A DNA stretch of 64,000 bases from Eledone cirrhosa (lineage: Eukaryota): assembly GCA_964016885.1 (NCBI GenBank), contig OZ024742.1:255068001-255132000 (forward strand), read 5' to 3'. This document shows positions 1,290 to 25,205 of the stretch, piece by piece. How positions within the stretch are numbered: position 1 is the first letter of the stretch; every line of letters starts with the position of its first letter. A program made the translations under genes and the position numbers. The notes under the pieces were generated by a model. It was not told the origin of the DNA and did no database searches. It was given only the letters and a program-made list of their open reading frames with translations.

Positions 1290-1535
1290 GGGAAGGTTTG
1301 TTAGTGGAAGACCAGCAGTTGCCCATGCATACCACTCTCCTCTCTCCACGCCACTGATGTTATCCAAGGGAAAGACAATGGCTCATATAGCTCAGCACTA
1401 GTAACATCACAAGTAATTTCTACAGCTGAGTGAACTGGAACAATATGAATCAAGGACACAACGCATTACCCAATCTGAGAATCTAACTCATAAACTCTCA
1501 ATTGCAAGGCCAAAGCTCTAACCACTAAGCCATCC
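1290..1535 (-). mobile_element. tRNA-derived SINE (diverged)
   Basis: The minus strand starts ggatggcttagtggttagagc (A-box-like) with a decayed B box. It is homologous to the copies at 34757-35075, 38025-38420 and 41399-41794. Confidence 0.7.
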
Positions 1536-1550
1536 ACTTTCATTATATAT

Positions 1551-5259
<3,709 letters not shown>

Positions 5260-6409: not shown

Positions 6410-8852
6410 CTTTGAATAACTTTGAAATGTTTTGGCCAGTATTGGCCCAGGCCATGTCTAACTTAATAGCACCACCTGGCGAAGTCTTTCAATTCAGGAT
6501 TTGGGCACCATGGCCCATTCGAGAAGAGAATTACTGTTTGCGGAGACATATCCGGGTGTGGGTGGTTTGTCCGGGATTACTTGGAGGAATTTGTCCAAAG
6601 ACTTCTTGAATTTTGTGTGGTCAGTTTCTGTTTTGACGTGTCCTGGTGTGATGTTGAAGAGAGCAGGGCCGATTGAGGTGAAATAATTGTGCCGTATTGT
6701 TGTTATGAGTTGCGATTTAGATTTTTGAATGGGACGGATAGCACGGGGCCCAAGCCTTGGGTGTATCTTGAAGGCGATGCCAACATCATTTGGGCAGTGA
6801 TGATGGAACATTTTCTACATCATGCAGATAATATAACGCTCACGGCGACGTTGGAGTGAGTAAAGTTTCAGGTTTTCTAATCGACCCCAGTAGTCAAGGT
6901 CTGACATGCCATCTATCTTTTTCGTGATTGCCCTTTGAGGAGCTTCAAGTTTCATGATACTTTGTTTCGTGTGGGGAGACCACAGTGGACAACAGTATTC
7001 AAGGTGTGGTCGGGCAAAAGTAGAGAAGAGAAGGATAATGGTGCGGGAATCTCTCGACTGGAAGGTTCTGAGGATCCAGGAACACATTCTGCGGGCCATG
7101 TCAACTTTGCTGCTTATATGCGTGGTCCAGCTTATGTTGCTGTCCACGGTTACTCCCAAGTCTCTGATGTTGTTAGATGCCACGAGAGTTTCCCCGGAGG
7201 GAAGGGAGTACGGGAGTTTCAGAGCATCCTCTTTTCCAAAGTGGATCAGTTCGAATTTGTCTTCGTTCAGTAACATGTTGTTCTTTTCTGCCCATTGGGT
7301 AACAGCCAGTAGGTCTGACTGAAGGCTTATCCGGTCATCTACGCCATTGATGACCTTTTGGAGCTTGGAATCATCAGCGAAAATTTTAATGTTGCTGTGT
7401 TTGATGATGTCAGTGATGTCATTAATATAGATGATGAAGAGAAGTGGGCCCAACACAGTGCCTTGTGGGACCCCACTACTGACTTTGGCTGGGCTTGATT
7501 TGACTCCCTCAACTACAACATGTTGGGTTCTGTTTGACAGGAAGCTCTTGATCCACTGCAGCAGCTTTCCAGTGACACCAATATTGGACAGCTTTCTCAG
7601 TAGAATGTTATGATCAACCCTGTCAAAGGCCTTGCTGAAATCAAGGTAGATAACATCAGTGTTGGAACCCTCTCCCAAGGCTCTCAAAATGTCATCAAAG
7701 TGATGCAGTAGCTGCGTCAGGCAATCCCTTCCATTACGGAATCCATGCTGGTTGGAGTTCAGCATATTGTTACTCTCAAGGAAGTGGGTCATTCGCGATC
7801 TCACCACTCGCTCAAATACCTTAATGATATGAGAGGTGAGTGAGATTGGACGGTAATTCACGGCAAGGGATTTGTTTCCCTTTTTGAAAACTGGGACAAC
7901 AGACTGGGATAGAAGGTTTTCTGGCACATAGCCAGCATCCAGTGAGTTCCGCCACAGATTGGCAAGAGGAGATGCAAGTTGGTGTTGACACGCCTTCAAG
8001 ACACAAGCAGGGAACCTATCGGGACCTACTGCTGAATTATGCTTGATTTCCTTTATTGCCGCCAAGACATCAGGGGCGCCAAACGTTATGTCCGATAAGG
8101 TGTAATGGGGAGTAACATCGCCGATACAGCCCAGATCGGCCATATCAGGATTGCTGAAAACAGAGCAGTATTGTTTCTGCAGTATCTCACCCATGGTTTT
8201 AGCATTGTCTTGAAGAGTGCCATTTTCATCAATTAGAGGGCCAACAGTAGAGCCAGTGATCTTGTGTTTTTTTGCAAATGAAAAGAACACTTTGGGATTG
8301 AGTTTGATCTTCTCAATGGCCCAGGCCTCTTCAGCTCTTCTCTGATTGTTGATGAGGGACATTATGTTGTTTTGGAGGTTATGTTTTTTAATCTCTAGTG
8401 ATGAAATGGCAGTCAAGTTGATGTGTTGCTGCTGACAGTATTTCAGCTTGTTGATTTTTTTGTTCGTTCTCTTAATTTTTCTGATGAGCGTTTTTCTATT
8501 TCTAGGGATTCTGCTCTTAGATTTGTTTATAGTTCTTAATGGGGTGTGTTTAGCACATATGTTTGTAACAGTGTCCACAAATGTCTGCCAGGACTTTTTG
8601 ATGTTAGTGGGTGTATGAGTGTGCGTGAAGGACCAGTCGACATGTGCAAGATCATGACTGATCGCTTCCCAGTTTGCATTGTGGAAATCCATAGCGTCAA
8701 ACGGATGGACAGGAGAGATGACATTGGGTTTGTATATTGGACGGTGGAATCTCAGATCACAGAGAACCATGTCATGATCAGAGAGTAGAGTTTTCTCCAC
8801 TGCAATATTGTGGATATTGTCAGTGTGATTGCTGAAAATTAAGTCTAGGACG

Positions 8853-8858
<6 letters not shown>
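6408..8858 (-). mobile_element. 5'-truncated CR1-group (L2/Crack/Daphne-like) LINE ORF2, RT nearly intact
   Basis: APE C-terminus ([14 protein letters not shown]), then YRPISLTS, QHGF, YLDFSKAFD, GVPQGTVLGP, FADDSK and RPHLEY. A frameshift near 6813 leads into FKKSLDKFL...PDKP..PGY..SNSL. The ORF N-terminus in the track is (TA)n read-through. Confidence 0.9.
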
Positions 8859-8935
<77 letters not shown>

Positions 8936-9041
8936 CATTTATATATATATATATATATACATATATGTATATGTATGTATATATATATATATATATATAT
9001 ACATACATACATTTAAATATATATATACATATATATATATG

Positions 9042-9162: not shown

Positions 9163-9666
9163 ATAATAATAAATTTGAAGACTAAAATCCAAAGAGGGCT
9201 CGTTAAGGATAAATATATATCAAATATATAAGAACCGTAGAGCAAATATTTATTAAAATAACAGATTATGTTATCTGTTATTTTAATAAATATATATACA
9301 CACATATATATATATACAAATATATATATACATATATATAAACATATATATATATATATATACATATATATATACATATATATATATACATATATATATA
9401 TACATACACATATATATATAACACAATAATCAAAGCTATGTTCAAATCATTTTATTGGCTGACAATCGTTTCTTTCAAACTATCGTTAGCATTCATCGGA
9501 ACAGTAGCAATGTTTGTACATATAAATAACCTCATATTCCGGCTCTGTAAAACATTGAGCTATTTTTTCTTACTGATAATAAGGAAGTAATAAATTACTG
9601 ACCTTTCCTGTTTATAGTTGTATATAGTGTCTACATAACTATAAATAATATTATTATTATATATAC

Positions 9667-12829: not shown

Positions 12830-13125
12830 CCCACTGCAAAATGGTTGAGCTGGTGCCACGGTAAAAAAGCACCCAGCGCATACTGTAAATGCGGTTGGTG
12901 TTAGGAAGGGCAGGTTGTCCTGTTGTGGGCAGTGTCCGGTCGGCTGAACTTGTCTTGCTCATATGGGAACTGATTCTGGCTTGATTTCTACAGCTATCCA
13001 GCTGTAGAAATCAAGCCAGAATCAGTTCCCATATGAGCAAGACAAGTTCAGCCGACCGGACACTGCCCGCAACAGGACAACCTGTCTAACCCATGCTACC
13101 ATGGAAGAACGGTGATGATGATCAT
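12830..13125 (+). mobile_element. SINE 3' part with internal ~85-bp-arm inverted duplication and (TGA)n tail
   Basis: Shares taggaagggca and cagctgtagaaatcaagccagaatcagttccc with the SINE at 34757-35075. Near-perfect hairpin at 12911-13085. Confidence 0.6.
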
Positions 13126-13231: not shown

Positions 13232-13235
<4 letters not shown>

Positions 13236-13545
13236 GAATTGGTGCTCTGAAATAGCGATATATATATGATTGTATATATAGTGTATTTTGCAATACACTG
13301 TATGCTTAATTAAAAGCATTTCGAAGACCTTATACTATTGTTTTAGAGTAGTGACAGTCTCACTTACTTTAATTTTCAGCAAACAGGGGAGATAAAGCTG
13401 ACAGAGCACTGTTTCGCCCTTGTTGGTGCTTATGAAAGCTAACTTCTCTGCCTGTTTGCTTAAAACCATGAATGTTTGATTCTTATAGAATTCTAGTAAT
13501 AATCAGGAACTGATTATACAGAGCGGTTGCCGGTCAAGCAGATAT
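13232..13545 (-). mobile_element. diverged monomer related to the 312-bp HHR family, with decayed HHR (13396-13440)
   Basis: Shares tgctctgaaatagcgatatatat, gaagacc and gagcggt..cggtc with 51604-52021. Reverse complement reads agct TTCATAA gcacc-aaca-agggc GAAACAG tgct CTGTC agct. Confidence 0.6.
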
Positions 13546-13619: not shown

Positions 13620-13714
13620 ATACTTGGGGAGGGTCATATTTGCGTAATATTGCCAGAATTAATAACAGAACACACTCACTGTTTGGTTGGTTTTCGCTTT
13701 ATATATATACATAC

Positions 13715-13767
<53 letters not shown>

Positions 13768-13772
<5 letters not shown>

Positions 13773-15590
13773 GACGTAAAATAAGAAAATATTTTTTTTT
13801 TTTTATTTTTAAAAAAATTTTTACTTACTTAAATTTTCACTCCAACTAATTAGTTTCTGCAATGGGATAAAGACAGTTACGTAATCCAACTGTCGAGAAT
13901 TCATTGCGTCATCAGGGAGTCTATTCTCAGTTAAGTCTCCAGGCAATGCGCGGACACTGGCGGCTCATATAAAAATAATAATAATTCGGTAGATCGAACA
14001 GCTTGCGAGGACTGGATTCTATGTACCGAAATTCTCACTGCTTCAAGTCAAATGGCCGATTCTAAAGAATCAATCACGTGACACAGAGGCTAGTTAGAAG
14101 GAATGGGATGGTAAGATGACTGACGCCTACTAACACCCCCCCAAAAAAAAATTCTTTTAGAAGTGGTTTTGGCAAGTTTGCTCGACAAATCAGTGATTTG
14201 GAGATAAATATAGATAATTTAATATATCAACTAACATAAGCGCACAGATGCACGCCCATGCTAGCAAATACACAGGTTATGTCATAGTACCTAGGTGGTT
14301 CAATGCAGGAGAATGCAGAACAATAATATAAAGGACGTAAAATAAGAAAATATTTTTTAAAAAAAATTTTTTTTAAATTTTTTACTTACTTAAATTTTCA
14401 CTCCAACTAATTAGTTTCTGCAATGGGATAAAGACAGTTACGTAATCCAACTGTCGAGAATTCATTGCGTCATCAGGGAGTCTATTCTCAGTTAAGTCTC
14501 CAGGCAATGCGCGGACACTGGCGGCTCATATAAAAATAACAATAATTCGGTAGATCGAACAGCTTGCAACATCCCATTCCTTCTAACTAGCCTCTGTGTC
14601 ACGTGATTGATTCTTTAGAATCGGCCATTTGACTTGAAGCAGTGAGAATTTCGGTACATAGAATCCAGTCCTCGCAAGCTATTCGATCTACCGAATTATT
14701 ATTATTTTTATATGAGCCGCCAGTGTCCGCGCATTGCCTGGAGACTTAACTGAGAATAGACTCCCTGATGACGCAATGAATTCTCGACAGTTGGATTACG
14801 TAACTGTCTTTATCCCATTGCAGAAACTAATTAGTTGGAGTGAAAATTTAAGTAAGTAAAAAATTTTTAAAAAATTTTAAAAAAAAAATATTTTCTTATT
14901 TTACGTCCTTTATATTATTGTTCTGCATTCTCCTGCATTGAACCACCTAGGTACTATGACATAACCTGTGTATTTGCTAGCATGGGCGTGCATCTGTGCG
15001 CTTATGTTAGTTGATATATTAAATTATCTATATTTATCTCCAAATCACTGATTTGTCGAGCAAACTTGCCAAAACCACTTCTAAAAGAATTTTTTTTTTT
15101 TTGGGGTGTTAGTAGGCGTCAGTCATCTTACCATCCCATTCCTTCTAACTAGCCTCTGTGTCACGTGATTGATTCTTTAGAATCGGCCATTTGACTTGAA
15201 GCAGTGAGAATTTCGGTACATAGAATCCAGTCCTCGCAAGCTGTTCGATCTACCGAATTATTATTATTTTTATATGAGCCGCCAGTGTCCGCGCATTGCC
15301 TGGAGACTTAACTGAGAATAGACTCCCTGATGACGCAATGAATTCTCGACAGTTGGATTACGTAACTGTCTTTATCCCATTGCAGAAACTAATTAGTTGG
15401 AGTGAAAATTTAAGTAAGTAAAAAATTTAAAAAAAATTTTTAAAAAAAAATATTTTCTTATTTTACGTCCTTTATATTATTGTTCTGCATTCTCCTGCAT
15501 TGAACCACCTAGGTACTATGACATAACCTGTGTATTTGCTAGCATGGGCGTGCATCTGTGCGCTTATGTTAGTTGATATATTAAATTATC
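13768..15590. repeat. 561-562 bp HHR-bearing tandem/inverted array (retrozyme-like)
   Basis: About 1.4 units in minus sense (13768-14568) and 1.8 units in plus sense (14569-15590), near identical and TA-flanked. HHRs at 13839-13920(-), 14400-14481(-), 14760-14841(+) and 15322-15403(+). Confidence 0.9.
14760..14841 (+). ncRNA. hammerhead ribozyme with extended stem II (representative of 4 copies)
   Basis: actcc CTGATGA c-gcaatg..gacagtt/aactgtc..cattgc-a GAAACTAATTAGTT ggagt. Palindromic stem III; GUU site. Confidence 0.85.
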
Positions 15591-15661
15591 TCTATATATA
15601 TATATATATATATATACAGTATATATATATATATACATTTATACAAACATATAAATATATG

Positions 15662-15716
<55 letters not shown>

Positions 15717-15826
15717 ATAGTAATAATAATAAAATTGAAGATTTTAATAAATATATATATGTATATATATATACATACATATATATATATGTATATATAT
15801 ATATATATGTATATATATATACATAC

Positions 15827-15877
<51 letters not shown>

Positions 15878-15982
15878 TATATGTGTACATATATATACAT
15901 ATATATATACATATATATATACACATATATACATATATATATATATACATATACCTATATATACATATACCTATATATACAT

Positions 15983-16860
15983 ATAATTTTGATTTAGATT
16001 AAATTAATTTTGATCTATCTTAATTTTGGATATATATATATAAACAAAATTAAGAGAAATCAAAATTAATTTAATCTAAATCAAAATTATGGGTGTCATG
16101 ACAGAAAGGCATGCGCCATATCACCCGAAAAATAAGCTCTAAGATTCTAATGAATAGGTCCGAGCATTTTATAACAACTAGAAGTTGATTAACATAAATA
16201 AACACATGAATAATCACAGGAGATAATTCTTACAAGTGTGTAAGCACACATATCTAGGTAGGTAACTAAATAAAGTTAACTAGAACTTCAAAAATAGATA
16301 CCTTATAATATGATTAATCTTCCCTGTATATATTCCATTAAAGAAATATATTTCACCAATTAATCGAATGCCGGTACTTGGATTTTCAACAAGGAAGAAG
16401 TCCACCGATCTATGTTTACGCATTAAGTTCAAATCAGCAACTGGCCAGTAACACGTGCTGTATCTACTAGAAATACACACATCCATCATACCAGCTTCGT
16501 CCCATTGGCGTGAATAGGGTTATCAACAACTAGAAACAGCAGTCAAGTCCTTTCAACAAAGTTAGCTCTATAATTAAGGAGCCGTATTTATATATCTATA
16601 TCAAAAATTAAGATAAATCAAAATGAATTTAATCTAAATCAAAATTATGGGTGTCATGCCAGAAAGGCATGCGCCATATCACCCGCAAAATAAGCTCTAA
16701 GATTCTAATGAATAGGTCCGAGCATTTTATAACAACTAGAAATTGCTTAACATATAAATAAACACATGAATAATCACAGGAGATAATTTTTACACACTTG
16801 TAAAAGTATTCTCCTGTGATTATTCATGTGTTTATTTATATGTTAATCAATTTCTAGTTG

Positions 16861-16862
<2 letters not shown>
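15983..16862. repeat. ~558-bp partial tandem unit with inverted end duplications; no HHR found
   Basis: 16025-~16230 recurs at ~16603-16795. Inverted copies at 15983-16030 and ~16800-16862. TA-flanked. Confidence 0.8.
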
Positions 16863-16945
<83 letters not shown>

Positions 16946-21121: not shown

Positions 21122-24100
21122 TTCGGATGCTAGCCCTTCATCAGAAGAAAGAATGAAAAATAAAATAGCTTGAGGGGACGGGCAGGATGGAATTGGAAGA
21201 AATGTCTTTATATGAAAATAACAGGTCCATTCATGTTGATATCTCTTGTAAAACTGTTGGTGCTGGCGTTTTGTGTATGATTTGTTTTTTAGAAAACTGG
21301 ATGATAGAGTGCGTCTACCTGAAATGAGTAAAAAAAAACGTTTTGTAATATGAGCTATACTTGAGCACGTGCGTAAGCATGTGTGTGTGTGTCTATGTGT
21401 GTGGGTGTGTGTGTGGGTGTGTGTGCGTGTTATTGTAGATCCGTACGAAGCTAAGAAGAAATGTGTGTGTATATATGAGTAAAAGAGTGTATGTACATGT
21501 AAGTACGAAGCTATGAGCAAAAGTATGTTAGTATAAGGGAGTGTATCGGCATGTATTATTTGTAAGGGAGATGTTAATGATCAAGAGAAAGCGATAGGAA
21601 TTTAGGGGTGTGATAATGGACGGGGTATTAGAGAAATTGAGGAGGTGAGTTGAGTCCAAGAGGGGAATAGGACCCAAGGCGGTGAATCAGACTTTGTTCA
21701 GTTCTGGTGCGCCAGGCCTGTGATCCATGATGTAAAAGGACACCGCAGGACTGAAACATGTAGGGAAGAATGACCAGGAGAACAGAAATGACGGGCGACA
21801 GGAGTATCCAAACCGAGTCGTATGTCCCTCAAATGTTCGGCAAAACGGTCCGCCATACGACGTACCAGTGGTCCGATATATAAAGACCCGTAAAGGGAAC
21901 ACCGGAGGGCATAGACAACGTGGGTGGGTGTGCAGGTGAAGGAATGTGCGGATATGGAAAGACCCGTTAGGGATGTAAGAGTGATGAGGGTGGAAATAAA
22001 GGGACAAGTGTTGCAGCGGGAACAGGAACAAGGATGAGATCCGGGTGGAGTCGTGGGAGAGGACGAAAAGGAATTGCAATCCAAGAAGTCGCTGAGGTTG
22101 TGGGCGCGCTTAAAAGCAGTAATGGGTGGGTTTGGAAAAAAGCGAGAAATAACGGAGTCAGAAGAGAGGATACGGAAGGAACAGAGGATATGTCGCCGGA
22201 GTGGTAGGGTGATGGGGTGGTAGGTGAGAGGGAAAGGAACACAGGTGTTGGGAGAAAGGGGGTGAAGTGAGAGGGCTGTGGTGCGGTCTGTTTCACGGGC
22301 GTGGGTGAGAGCAGCTTGGATCAGGGTGGGGGGGATATCCACCCTGGATGAAGCAAGAAGCCATACGAAGGGAATGGGTTTCGAAATCATCGTCCTGGCT
22401 ACTGAGTCGACGAAGACGGAAGAATTGGGAATAGGGTATGGAGTGTTTGGTGGGGGTTTGATGGGAAGTGGTGAAGTCGAGATAAGATTGGGAGTCTGTT
22501 GGTTTAATGAAGATGGAAGTAGAGAGGGTGTGGTGAGAGTGATTAATAGATAGAGAGATATCTAGAAAAGCGACAGAAGAATCGTGAAATTAAGAGCAAG
22601 ATTGAAATATTGGACAAAACAAAGAAAACAGTCGAGCTGTTCTCGTGATAGAGAGGTGGCGCTGATACAGTCGTCGCTATAACAACCATATAGCTCAGAA
22701 GTCGCTCCAGCGTACTGGGAGAAAATCAGGGCTTCAACGTAGCCATTCTGGTTCCCATCGCTACCCCAGAGACCTGCTGGTAAAATTCACCCGAAAAAAG
22801 AAAATCCATTAAGGGTGAGAACAAGCTCAGCCAGACGGAGAAGAGTGGTAGTGCTGGGGTAGGTGGTAGGGCATAAATCTAAAAAATGCTGGAGAGCGCA
22901 GGGACCGTCATCATGAGGGATGACGGTATAGAGAGGAGTGATGTCGAGGGTAAAGAGAAGGCGGGAGGGACCAGCAGGAAACGAGAAAGGGTTGAAGAGT
23001 CTAAGGGCATGATTTATATCGTGGATGTGGGAGGGGAGATTGCCGACCAACGGGTGAGGATGGTGTCTAAATATTCAGAAATTATCTCGGTGGGGCAGTT
23101 GCACGCAGAAACGATAGAACGGCCAAGATTATTTTGTTTGTGTATTTTGGGGAGGAAGTATATGGTGGATGTGCGAGGGGTGCGTACAATAAGTTTGGTG
23201 GCTGTGGGGGTAGGTGAGAGGAGGAGATGGGCTCGAGGATGGTGGAGGACTCGAGTTGTTGGTAGCCAGGAGAGGGTTCGGAGGATAAAGGGTGGTAAAA
23301 AAGGGTTATTGTGAAGCTGGCGGAGAGCCTCAGCCCTATAGAGGTCAGCGCTCCAAACCACCACAGCGCCACCTTTGTCAGCGGGTTTGATGACAACGTC
23401 ATCGCAACGCCAAAGGTTGCGAAGAGCGCAGAGCTCAGTCCGCATGATGTTAGAGCGACGAGAATGCTGGTGGAAACGGTTCACAGTACGCCGGCAAGTA
23501 TCGACAAAGGAGTCGAGGGTGCTGAACTGGCCAGAGCTCGGCGTCCAATGTGATTGCCGGCGACTGCGATGAGTGAAGTCATCCGTCTGTGTCGATGATG
23601 GCGTGTCGTGAAAAAAAGCTTTCAGTTTTAATCGACAGAAGAACCTTTCACTCTCGGAACGTGTGCGGAACTCGTCGCAGGTAGATGTGGTTGGTATAAA
23701 ACGCAAACCACGGGCGAGGAGGGAGCTCTCAGCTTCAGAGAGTGGTAGGTCCTGGGGTATAGTGACTACAGGGCATGGATGTGAGGGAGTGAAAGAGGCG
23801 GAGGCGGAGGGGTCAAGGTGGGAAAATCGTGCAGATTATGTGGTAGGGGACGGGATAGAGGGGTTAGGGTTGGAGGTGATATGAGTATGGGTGGTGATGG
23901 CAGGCGAAAAGAGAAGAGAGTCGAGTTTATGATCTTTTACGGAAGTGAGGAAATTGAAAAGGAGGTGATTGAGGTAAAGGATGAATTGGATAAGGGATTG
24001 GGAAAGGAAAGAGTGGCAAGTGGAGGAGAGATGGCGGTAGACCTTGGGGAGATCTCGGTCGAGAGAACGGATTTGAGCGAGAGTTGATCGAATGGTCGCC

Positions 24101-24455
24101 TGTATGAACTGGCGAGTGGAACAGTTAAGGATGGGCTCAGTGGTGGGAGCAGAGTAAGAGGTGGGGTGAAACTTGAGGAGGAAACCGTGGTGAATGAGGT
24201 GGTGGTGGAGACAGCGACGTAAAAAAGTGATGTTACTGTTGTATCGTGTTTTGGTGAAGATGAGGTTGGAGAGATGCAGGGAGGATTGGATGCATATGGG
24301 TGGGGGGGTTGGAGGAAACGCTGAGAGTAGAATGGAGCTGGCGGAGAAAAGATTTGAAATTGGGCATATTGAATGTACTAGGGTGGGAGTGAAAAATAGA
24401 CGGGTGAGAAGAAGAAGGAGGTGTAAGAGGATTGTAGTAGAGGAAAAGTGGTAGT
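21118..24455 (-). mobile_element. Penelope-like element, Neptune-type, degenerate, with truncated HHR at its 3' end (21118-21148)
   Basis: FLRRCLHHHLI N-terminus, KPADKGGAVVVW, YFLPKIHK, TLDITPLYT, GVAMG, CSCSRCNTC linker and VVYALRC..YIG. Reverse complement of the 3' end reads CTGATGA agggctagcatcc GAAACGT. Confidence 0.9.
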
Positions 24456-24473
24456 GTATATATATATACATAT

Positions 24474-25173
24474 AAACGGAAAAAATGAAACGAAATTTCA
24501 TTTCCCACTCTTAGTACGGTTGTTACTTAAATATAAGTATGTACACGTACATACATATATGTATACAGACGCACAGTAGTATGTATATATATATACATAC
24601 ATGCACACATATATATATATGTACGTATGGATTCACTGAGCATTTATTATAATGCTCGGTGTGTTTGTAAACAAACATCCCGTATTAAGCCGTAGTGTCT
24701 AGCAACCATCGTTGCTCGTTTGTTCAACGCTGACAAAGGAACGCTGTACTAGGTTCAAGCTTATTAGCTATCGTCAGCAACGTATACCTTCCTGCCAGAT
24801 TGTTGAACGTATATACTTACCTTATGCATATTAACGGTTGAGTAGCCCGATATGCAAATTGGGCTACTCAGCCGTTAATATGCATAAGGTAAGTATATAC
24901 GTTCAACAATCTGGCAGGAAGGTATACGTTGCTGACGATAGCTAATAAGCCTGAAACTAGTACAGCGTTCCTTTGTCAGTGTTGAACAAACGAGCAACGA
25001 TGGTTGCTAGACACTACGGCTTAATACGGGATGTTTGTTTACAAACACACCGAGCATTATAATAAATGTTCGGTGAATCCATACGTACATATATATATGT
25101 GTGCATGTATGTATATATATATATACATACTACTGTACGTCTGTATACATATATGTATGTACGTGTACATACT

Positions 25174-25175
<2 letters not shown>
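24474..25175. repeat. inverted duplication (~330-bp arms) of an HHR/octamer unit of the ~510-bp family
   Basis: Arms meet at ~24850. HHR at 24926-24968(+): acgttg CTGACGA t-agct-aata-agcc-t GAAAC TA GTA cagcgt. The minus copy at 24741-24783 has GAAC instead of GAAA. ATGCAAAT at 24852. Confidence 0.85.

Positions 25176-25205
<30 letters not shown>

Follow-up and report, generated by a model that had tools for sequence, protein, structure and literature searches.

The array and its target site

An array of a 561-bp repeat unit that carries hammerhead ribozyme motifs occupies positions 13768 to 15591 of a 64,000-nt stretch of Eledone cirrhosa DNA (assembly GCA_964016885.1, contig OZ024742.1, positions 255,068,001 to 255,132,000 of the forward strand; the whole stretch is hereafter the window, and positions are counted from its first letter). 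The window consists of animal-like DNA with abundant (TA)n and many retroelement pieces. Positions within the unit, which is 562 bp long in one copy, are given as V1-V561 and read in ribozyme sense. The tandem-plus-inverted layout described in the original prediction, a short note on this DNA, was recovered as two head-to-head arms between (TA)n tracts; the right end, placed there at 15590, lies at 15591.

13700..13769, no strand: left (TA)n target tract
13768..14567, minus strand: left (inverted) arm of 800 nt, read from 14567 to 13768 as a 5'-truncated V323-561 and then a full unit V1-561
14568..14569: head-to-head joint of 2 nt (AA), which the left arm does not template
14568..14673: non-palindromic spacer (106 nt) of the 800-bp inverted repeat in which 13768-14567 pairs with 14674-15474
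14570..15591, plus strand: right arm of about 1020 nt, consisting of V219-561, a full unit V1-561 and then V1-117
15593..15985, no strand: right (TA)n target tract
14967..15020, plus strand: hairpin of 23 bp with 9 G-U pairs (-27.8 kcal/mol on the ribozyme strand versus -5.3 on the other strand)

The outer ends of both arms are element 3' ends that adjoin (TA)n, with a 5-nt TA microhomology at each. Four TA-like sites are present per unit, and the arms end at two of the four, at +75 and about +193 from the predicted cut site (V486). The left arm stops about 75 nt past that site, just before a bulged hairpin, and the right arm continues through a terminal extension of ~117 nt (V1-117) that the left arm lacks. 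The arms start at V323 and V219, and neither begins at the cut site. Outside homopolymer tracts only two substitutions separate the copies, so the insertion is young, and the array is best read as one recent insertion. The unit is found at this one locus within the window, and no match to it was detected in prokaryotic genome contigs.

The absence of coding potential, as originally described, is borne out: the longest ATG-initiated open reading frame (ORF) has 29 codons, the longest stop-free stretch has 52, and a circular form of the unit contains no endless ORF. A tblastn comparison with 120 homologues from Penelope-like elements (PLEs) returned one 22-aa match only (E 0.015), and no ORF remnant was found next to the array. 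The ORF of an autonomous PLE of the Hydra clade, with a reverse transcriptase (RT), a C-terminal GIY-YIG domain and the motifs RWK, DKT and CxCX5C, does not occur in the array. The unit shows strand-specific RNA structure, folding at a z-score of -5.7 in ribozyme sense and -1.5 in antisense, and at -4.7 as a circle (40 shuffles each). A bacterial promoter scan, not relevant to an animal host, stayed at chance level. An initiator-like hexamer lies ~11 nt upstream of the right-arm start, a weak and post hoc lead.

Hammerhead motifs in the 561-bp unit

Four hammerhead motifs are present, two in each arm, spaced 561 or 562 nt within the arm. Base numbering inside them follows the hammerhead convention.

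13839..13920, minus strand: hammerhead L1, C3 at 13915, predicted cut between 13844 and 13843
14400..14481, minus strand: hammerhead L2, C3 at 14476
14760..14841, plus strand: hammerhead R1, C3 at 14765, core 14765-14771, helix II insert 14772-14822, GAAA 14823-14826, palindrome 14825-14836, predicted cut 14836/14837 (GUU)
15322..15403, plus strand: hammerhead R2, the dimer partner of R1, C3 at 15327, predicted cut 15398/15399
14752..14785, plus strand: possible pseudoknot of 6 bp, in which 14752-14757 of the helix I loop would pair with 14780-14785 of the helix II internal loop

No sequence difference separates the four motifs, and each contains what a type I motif requires: the core CUGANGA and GAAA, the pair A15.1-U16.1 and a cut-site base other than G, here U17 in GUU. 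Three helices surround the core. Helix I has 5 bp and is open-ended. The span between A9 and G12 measures 51 nt and comprises a C.A mismatch at the base of helix II, where a G-C pair is usual, followed by 6 bp, a 7x7 internal loop, 7-8 bp and an apical loop; the 6-bp and 7-bp helices named in the original prediction are both present. The 12-nt palindrome assigned there to stem III also exists, but helix III takes up only 10 of the 12 bases (A15.1 to U16.1), the outer two being A14 and U17. It would have 3 bp in a monomer and 10 bp in a dimer.

When the unit was shuffled 20000 times with dinucleotides preserved, even a relaxed descriptor gave no match. None of 500 shuffles of the helix II insert folds as well as the insert itself (z -4.4), and the distal 37 nt of the insert fold better than 991 of 1000. 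With a stricter descriptor, 23 motifs from seven families were detected in the window, as against none in each of 30 block shuffles, and a relaxed scan adds hammerheads beyond these 23. The presence of the hammerhead motif can be regarded as virtually certain. At the gathering score Rfam has no match anywhere in the window, and at E <=10 none of its 74 matches between 12000 and 17500 falls on the array hammerheads, nearly all of them being microsatellite or hairpin noise. The motif departs from the canonical type I hammerhead of Rfam in having no G10.1-C11.1 pair and a 51-nt insert, and from the minimal PLE descriptor in having a loop 2 of 37 nt and a gap of 8 nt between A15.1 and U16.1. Three short motifs taken from it have no match in the text of the Craig 2021 supplement, where line breaks may hide some.

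Predicted folding and activity

Two copies in tandem fold differently from one. In the dimer the palindromes pair between copies, with helix III pairs at P>=0.97, and the active site costs 1.3 kcal/mol over the minimum free energy, versus 7.7-9.6 in the monomer. Folding thus favours cleavage as a dimer, in the model at least, in agreement with the dimer mechanism that has been reported for hammerheads of PLEs (PMC4209133). In the fold check proposed with the original prediction, the insert folds beyond shuffles and the dimer is favoured; the core of the monomer misfolds. Covariation among the copies is not possible, as the four are identical across the ribozyme.

Several observations count against an active ribozyme. 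In the monomer the core is misfolded with P 0.85. Metazoan PLE hammerheads are weak (PMC4209133), and one PLE hammerhead needed protein and was dispensable for insertion (PMC11167929). In vitro, one of nine predicted retrozyme dimers cleaved (bioRxiv 10.64898/2026.07.22.740005). Both arms start away from the cut site; among the seven arm starts located in the window only that of the right arm of a 312-bp array lies within 2 nt of such a site, which is weak evidence of ribozyme activity. An axolotl version with U.U at the helix II base does cleave as a dimer (PMC7229834). Measurable dimer cleavage is predicted here with slightly better than even confidence, no higher because of the one success in nine in the recent test.

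The possible pseudoknot is complementary in the same way in all four copies, with a duplex energy of -6.8 kcal/mol and a permutation p of 0.021, and its halves would lie at similar distances from the core and in the right polarity. Watson-Crick contacts between helices I and II were predicted in about 40% of one hammerhead collection; in hammerheads elsewhere, contacts of this kind occur often and affect the rate (PMC3088659). None of ten other hammerheads in the window has a 6-bp counterpart, the best having 4 bp, and no covariation was found for it. A helix I loop-helix II internal loop pseudoknot is, on the modeled structure, rather doubtful.

A bulged hairpin and a probable link to the Hydra clade

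Downstream of the cut site, the unit contains a hairpin in which a 4-bp stem, a 2-nt bulge on the 3' side and another stem follow one another. The same hairpin occurs at the termini of a Hydra-clade PLE elsewhere in the window.

14298..14321, minus strand: bulged hairpin, left-arm copy
14920..14943, plus strand: bulged hairpin at +84 from the cut site, also present at Hydra PLE termini
15482..15505, plus strand: bulged hairpin in the right-arm terminal extension
50635..56218, minus strand: Hydra-clade PLE outside the array, with an open 715-aa ORF at 56001-53854 (RWK, DKT, CxCX5C)

The hairpin pattern has ten matches in the window, from five families, versus 0.29 expected. The first two bases of the hairpin lie outside the search pattern, yet they are paired in all ten matches, and one compensatory pair change is seen in the hairpin of the 561-bp unit. 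In the Hydra element, copies are found at 56167 and 50708, within terminal repeats of ~80 nt. Both that element and the 36.9-kb family have the hairpin at +43 from the cut site; in the 561-bp unit it is at +84, following a 30-nt A/T tract. The short arms end close by: at +75 in the array, just 5' of the hairpin, and at +37 in the 36.8-kb element, and the Hydra terminal repeat in the window starts at about +35. Only 3 of 20000 shuffled units contain the strict motif.

By eye, the hairpin is exact in two of six new Hydra consensus sequences (the 5' end of Ajap1 and the 3' end of Ajap2) and present as a variant in two more (Amil2 and Crog); it is not seen in Amil1 and Obim, the 3' ends of which stop ~40 nt past the cut site. 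The main text of PMC8557442 mentions neither a hairpin nor a stem-loop, and a literature search that covered few subscription papers returned nothing on such a hairpin. The bulged hairpin is put forward as a candidate new cis-element, conserved in Hydra elements from coral, from sea cucumber and from the present host. Whether it is a binding site for the RT/endonuclease that fixes the start of reverse transcription, and hence the two arm ends, is an evenly balanced question on the sequence.

The Hydra link has its weaknesses. The architecture alone, without the strict motif, occurs in 193 of 20000 shuffled units, and the motif was relaxed after the 561-bp unit had been seen. Alignments of the unit with the Hydra leader, 3' untranslated region (UTR) and ORF are not significant (for the leader, 123 of 500 shuffles were as good), nor are alignments with seven neighbouring hammerheads, so that the link rests on a short motif. 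A Hydra-clade PLE is nevertheless a probable parent element, judging by the shared hairpin and by core traits that recur in published Hydra motifs.

Three further observations concern shared sequence. Within the window, an 8-mer at 15055-15062 and at 56023 (minus strand) is confined to the 561-bp unit and the leader of the Hydra element, 135 versus 144 nt from the hairpin; it also occurs in the published Hydra-1_Ajap leader, and is a weak and post hoc lead. An 11-mer common to the 561-bp unit and a 475-bp family was rejected as a sign of homology, as one is expected among 66 pairwise comparisons. Additional copies of the bulged hairpin at 9542-9560 (plus strand) and 27023-27000 (minus strand), near (TA)n and with no hammerhead in the descriptor scans, are probably truncated Hydra-type ends.

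Long helix II inserts

The 51-nt insert is one of several in the window. Three families (312-bp, 475-bp and 24/35-kb) have an A9-G12 span of 14 nt, and other hammerheads in the window have spans of 26, 30, 36, 38 and 116 nt. All seven long inserts that were tested fold better than their shuffles (z -3.1 to -7.6, with no more than 4 of 500 shuffles as good), although they are unrelated in sequence. Because unrelated inserts all fold in this way, the modeled structures suggest that selection acts on the pairing of long inserts rather than on their sequence or length. When six long-helix-II motifs were aligned, both sides had changed in 13 of 18 predicted pairs; this is loose support only, as the MAFFT registers differ between families. 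The C.A mismatch at the helix II base is shared by three families in the window, including the 561-bp unit.

Published motifs provide a context for these lengths. A hand count of the 26 Hydra rows in File S2 of PMC8557442 gives A9-G12 spans of 12-26 nt, a mismatch at the helix II base in 15, U at the cut site in 10 and a 10-nt helix III in six. In the same source two Selaginella PLE-X1 motifs, sMoe and sTam, span 54 and 48 nt by the present count, the Chara element PLE-X1_cBra has a C.A mismatch and then G-C, and eight Naiads with core halves 35-50 nt apart are recorded as 'half core'. Descriptors in print limit loop 2 to <=10 nt (PMC4209133) or the core spacer to <=17 nt (PMC8557442). Most likely, the long helix II is an insertion that the motif tolerates and whose pairing is maintained so as not to keep the core from forming.

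Identity and proposed insertion mechanism

The array has the sequence attributes of a non-LTR (long terminal repeat) retrozyme, in that at least two consecutive units carry an intact type I motif and code for no protein; retrozymes are described as tandem arrays related to the pLTRs (pseudo-LTRs) of PLEs, with units of 51-972 bp that each contain a type I hammerhead (bioRxiv 10.64898/2026.07.22.740005). It also has those of a PLE-type insertion: a partial tandem with an adjacent inverted 5'-truncated copy, in a microsatellite that is (TA)n for Hydra. Published accounts of PLEs describe partial tandems that have an inverted 5'-truncated copy at the 5' end, together with a one-sided extension and a preference for (TA)n (PMC8557442). 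The one-sided extension measures ~117 nt in the array and ~31 nt in the 312-bp family, and the terminal repeat of the Hydra element in the window is ~80 nt long. With purified PLE protein (Poseidon), both strands of AT-rich DNA are cut and then extended, and two internal RNA sites serve as starting points for reverse transcription (PMC11167929). A PLE-type retro-insertion is accordingly very probable. The narrower identification, as a non-autonomous non-LTR retrozyme that is derived from the termini of a Hydra-clade PLE and borrows the RT/GIY-YIG protein of that element, is likely. Some features fit it less well: a target-site duplication is unreadable inside (TA)n, the extension of ~117 nt exceeds the published tail of 30-40 bp, and Neptune-like PLEs (DKG motif), which reportedly favour microsatellites, are also present in the window.

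A series of steps can be proposed. In a multimeric transcript, two neighbouring hammerheads would fold as a dimer through the 10-bp palindromic helix III, and the dimer would cut after GUU to give unit-length, possibly circular RNA. A Hydra protein may then bind near the bulged hairpin and nick both strands of (TA)n, with reverse transcription primed from each 3' end at the TA-like RNA points that flank the hairpin region (+75 and about +193). Each complementary DNA (cDNA) would be more than one unit long and pass two intact cut sites, which implies that the template was an uncut multimer or a circle. Both cDNAs would stop early, as truncated products, and be joined head to head, leaving the inverted repeat as a by-product of integration. 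Twin priming of the simple kind familiar from L1 was rejected, as the right arm starts at V219 and not at V561, the priming point of the left arm.

Alternative explanations

The most serious alternative is that the element is the same but its hammerhead is catalytically dead or negligible, spreading from uncut multimeric RNA with the ribozyme as a passenger. The C.A mismatch at 10.1/11.1, the ability of U17 to pair with A14 in a 12-bp palindrome and the misfolded monomer are all consistent with this, as are the eight inactive ones among nine tested retrozyme dimers (bioRxiv 10.64898/2026.07.22.740005) and the finding that PLE insertion in vitro did not require cleavage (PMC11167929). Moreover, reverse transcription crossed the cut site in all four passes, and no arm begins there. 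However, the core is intact in 4/4 copies, the C.A mismatch recurs in three families of the window, the axolotl U.U version cleaves as a dimer (PMC7229834), and the right arm of the 312-bp array, one of the seven located starts, begins <=2 nt from its predicted cut site. A dead ribozyme is thus a real possibility, if the less likely one. Local amplification of a terminal fragment of an autonomous PLE as DNA, by unequal crossover and fold-back with no RNA step, is much harder to sustain. Growth of satellites from a pLTR has been proposed (bioRxiv 10.64898/2026.07.22.740005), and the unit is confined to one locus in the window, but the array has no ORF remnant beside it, its two outer ends are 3' ends of the element at (TA)n, the arms start and end at different points, and the RNA structure of the unit is strand-specific and rich in G-U; this explanation is improbable.

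The inversion at 14568 had been taken to create an extended double-stranded RNA (dsRNA) or cruciform-prone locus, which raises the question of whether the host uses it for hairpin RNA or small RNAs. The arms are indeed inverted, and a read-through RNA would pair 781 of the 800 bases of the left arm; there is, however, no clean palindrome, the 800-bp arms being 106 nt apart, a spacer that disfavours cruciform extrusion. Since the ribozyme-sense strands diverge from the joint, a read-through hairpin would need an outside or antisense promoter. The copies are near-identical and hence young, many other fold-back insertions occur in the window (several with far shorter spacers), those long ORFs that were examined belong to pieces of retroelements, and no RNA gene was detected with Rfam. 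A host-used locus is therefore highly improbable, and the dsRNA- or cruciform-like layout looks like a by-product of integration. An assembly or long-read fold-back artefact would account for copies that differ almost only at homopolymer boundaries, as consensus errors do, and PLE repeats are known to trouble assemblies (PMC8557442). It would not account for mirror ends that coincide with element ends next to unrelated flanks, for asymmetric arms with a 106-nt spacer, or for a layout seen also in published PLE insertions and elsewhere in the window, and an artefact is extremely improbable. A retrozyme derived from Hydra-clade termini remains the preferred identification.

Other elements in the window

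The Hydra-clade PLE carries a hammerhead with a 38-nt helix II insert at 50808, in its 3' UTR. A 312-bp retrozyme array, inserted at a (TA)n tract of the same UTR, interrupts the element. A search with the ORF of this PLE gave 1637 homologous matches, almost all unnamed among the 120 listed; Pfam has nothing for eight of nine retroelement pieces, this ORF included, and the clade of the ORF was assigned by diagnostic motifs. The terminal repeat of this PLE recurs in inverted orientation at 50424-50548. The 312-bp retrozyme (51595-53437) is also tandem plus inverted and has five hammerheads with a U.U mismatch; its right arm starts <=2 nt from the predicted cut site (52024), and its extension of ~31 nt has the classical tail length. 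A large inverted-repeat PLE remnant at 42023-49961 includes a Hydra-type endonuclease piece (44976-45776) and a hammerhead with the 116-nt helix II insert (z -7.6), the plus-strand copy of which, near 49810, has a changed C3.

A 475-bp retrozyme at 57178-59899 (minus strand) has six hammerheads with G-C at 10.1/11.1 and a GUU site and, by eye, shares sequence traits with the 24.5/35.6-kb family, among them an octamer-like motif upstream of the ribozyme. Pieces of a Neptune-like PLE at 21698-25181, on the minus strand, include a 5' hammerhead repeat and its inverted copy (24528-25181), and further copies are found at 35.2-35.9 kb and 38.5-39.2 kb. The region of 34.7-42 kb is a tandem duplication of about 3.4 kb. 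Two elements in the window carry DKG and cysteine motifs and are on that basis taken here to be Neptune-like.

Fold-back hammerhead elements at 36570-37110, 39950-40480 and 50300-50420 have helix II spans of 30, 36 and 26 nt, and in one of these three loci the hammerhead is followed by a bulged hairpin at +43. At 13232-13545 a decayed neighbour of the array resembles the terminus of the 312-bp family, with degenerate hammerhead-like cores on the minus strand and a weak Rfam HH9 match (13381-13450, E 2.6), and at 15983-16865 a tandem of ~558 bp plus a fold-back lies between (TA)n tracts, with no hammerhead by the descriptors used. More retroelement pieces are located at 1494-3806 (plus strand), 6815-8938 (minus strand), 11.8-12.7 kb, 18.4-21.0 kb and 63.3-63.9 kb. 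The retroelement pieces include a Neptune-like PLE, an RVT_1-bearing ORF of a long interspersed nuclear element (LINE; Pfam E 1.9e-31) and LINE-like fragments. Many short perfect fold-backs are scattered through the window, for example at 12911-13084.

Significance

The array is a real feature, and its layout and most of its oddities have precedent. The special status implied by the original prediction is overstated, as both the inverted truncated copy and the long helix II are known from elsewhere, and within the window the locus is ordinary, being one of at least seven hammerhead-bearing repeat families. It does provide a short, young and ORF-less substrate for studying how tandem-plus-inverted insertions of PLEs arise, and its bulged hairpin is a candidate recognition element for the Hydra clade. 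Long-helix-II motifs (51 nt here and 30-116 nt in the neighbours) are probably under-counted, since published descriptors limit loop 2 to 10 nt or the core spacer to 17 nt, and this bears on the claim that Naiads lack canonical hammerheads. The motif is furthermore a natural test of whether a GUU site with C.A at 10.1/11.1 cleaves, and of whether an internal-loop pseudoknot replaces the loop 1-loop 2 contact. The bulged hairpin and the long-helix-II series are the leads worth following.

A combined proposal, in which the hairpin is a cis-element, a 6-7-bp pseudoknot restores fast cleavage despite the C.A mismatch and a functional class has been missed, is unlikely in its entirety. If it were true, long-helix-II hammerheads would form a functional class overlooked by current descriptors, which might include the eight 'half core' cases from the Naiads, elements said to lack canonical hammerheads.

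Comparison with known systems

As in pseudoknot-stabilised hammerheads (PMC3088659), a Watson-Crick contact between helices I and II is possible; here, unlike there, it would join two internal loops in a PLE-type motif, and it is predicted only. The minimal hammerheads of PLEs (PMC4209133) share the core plus one unpaired base, a short helix I, a palindromic helix III, a 6-bp helix II running from G to C, the NUH site and an AU-rich 3' flank, and one motif listed there has an extra A before GAAA. Their descriptor allows 3-10 nt for loop 2 and 2 nt between A15.1 and U16.1, as opposed to 37 and 8 nt here; as both limits are exceeded, the search in that study would miss the motif of the 561-bp unit. 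The PLE-X1 elements of Selaginella and Chara (PMC8557442, File S2) are similar in their long spans (54 and 48 nt) and in the C.A mismatch followed by G-C (cBra), and the Selaginella motifs sMoe and sTam are flagged in that source as deviating from the canonical structure. They differ in belonging to plant EN-minus (endonuclease-minus) elements and in being tabulated with a long loop and no second helix.

Metazoan non-LTR retrozymes (PMC7229834; bioRxiv 10.64898/2026.07.22.740005) are likewise built from non-coding head-to-tail units with one type I hammerhead each and at least two consecutive intact motifs. The 561-bp unit falls within their range of 51-972 bp, its helix III is predicted to depend on a dimer as theirs does, and axolotl HHR_Amex2 also has a mismatch at the helix II base (PMC7229834). 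They differ in having 4 bp and a short loop where the present unit has a 51-nt insert, and in a typical unit of ~300 nt, which is exceeded here. The inverted arm may be a further difference, as 'inverted' has no match in the text of PMC7229834.

In comparison with Hydra-clade PLEs (PMC8557442, File S2), the array lacks an ORF, its A9-G12 span is 51 nt as against 12-26 nt in 26 rows, the hairpin lies farther from the cut site (+84, as against about +40), with an A/T tract of 30 nt intervening, and the extension is ~117 rather than 30-40 nt. The two have in common the 10.1/11.1 mismatch, a near-palindromic helix III of 9-10 nt, frequent U17 and a short helix I, as well as the (TA)n target, the inverted 5'-truncated copy (noted for Penelope-13_HM) and the hairpin downstream of the cut.

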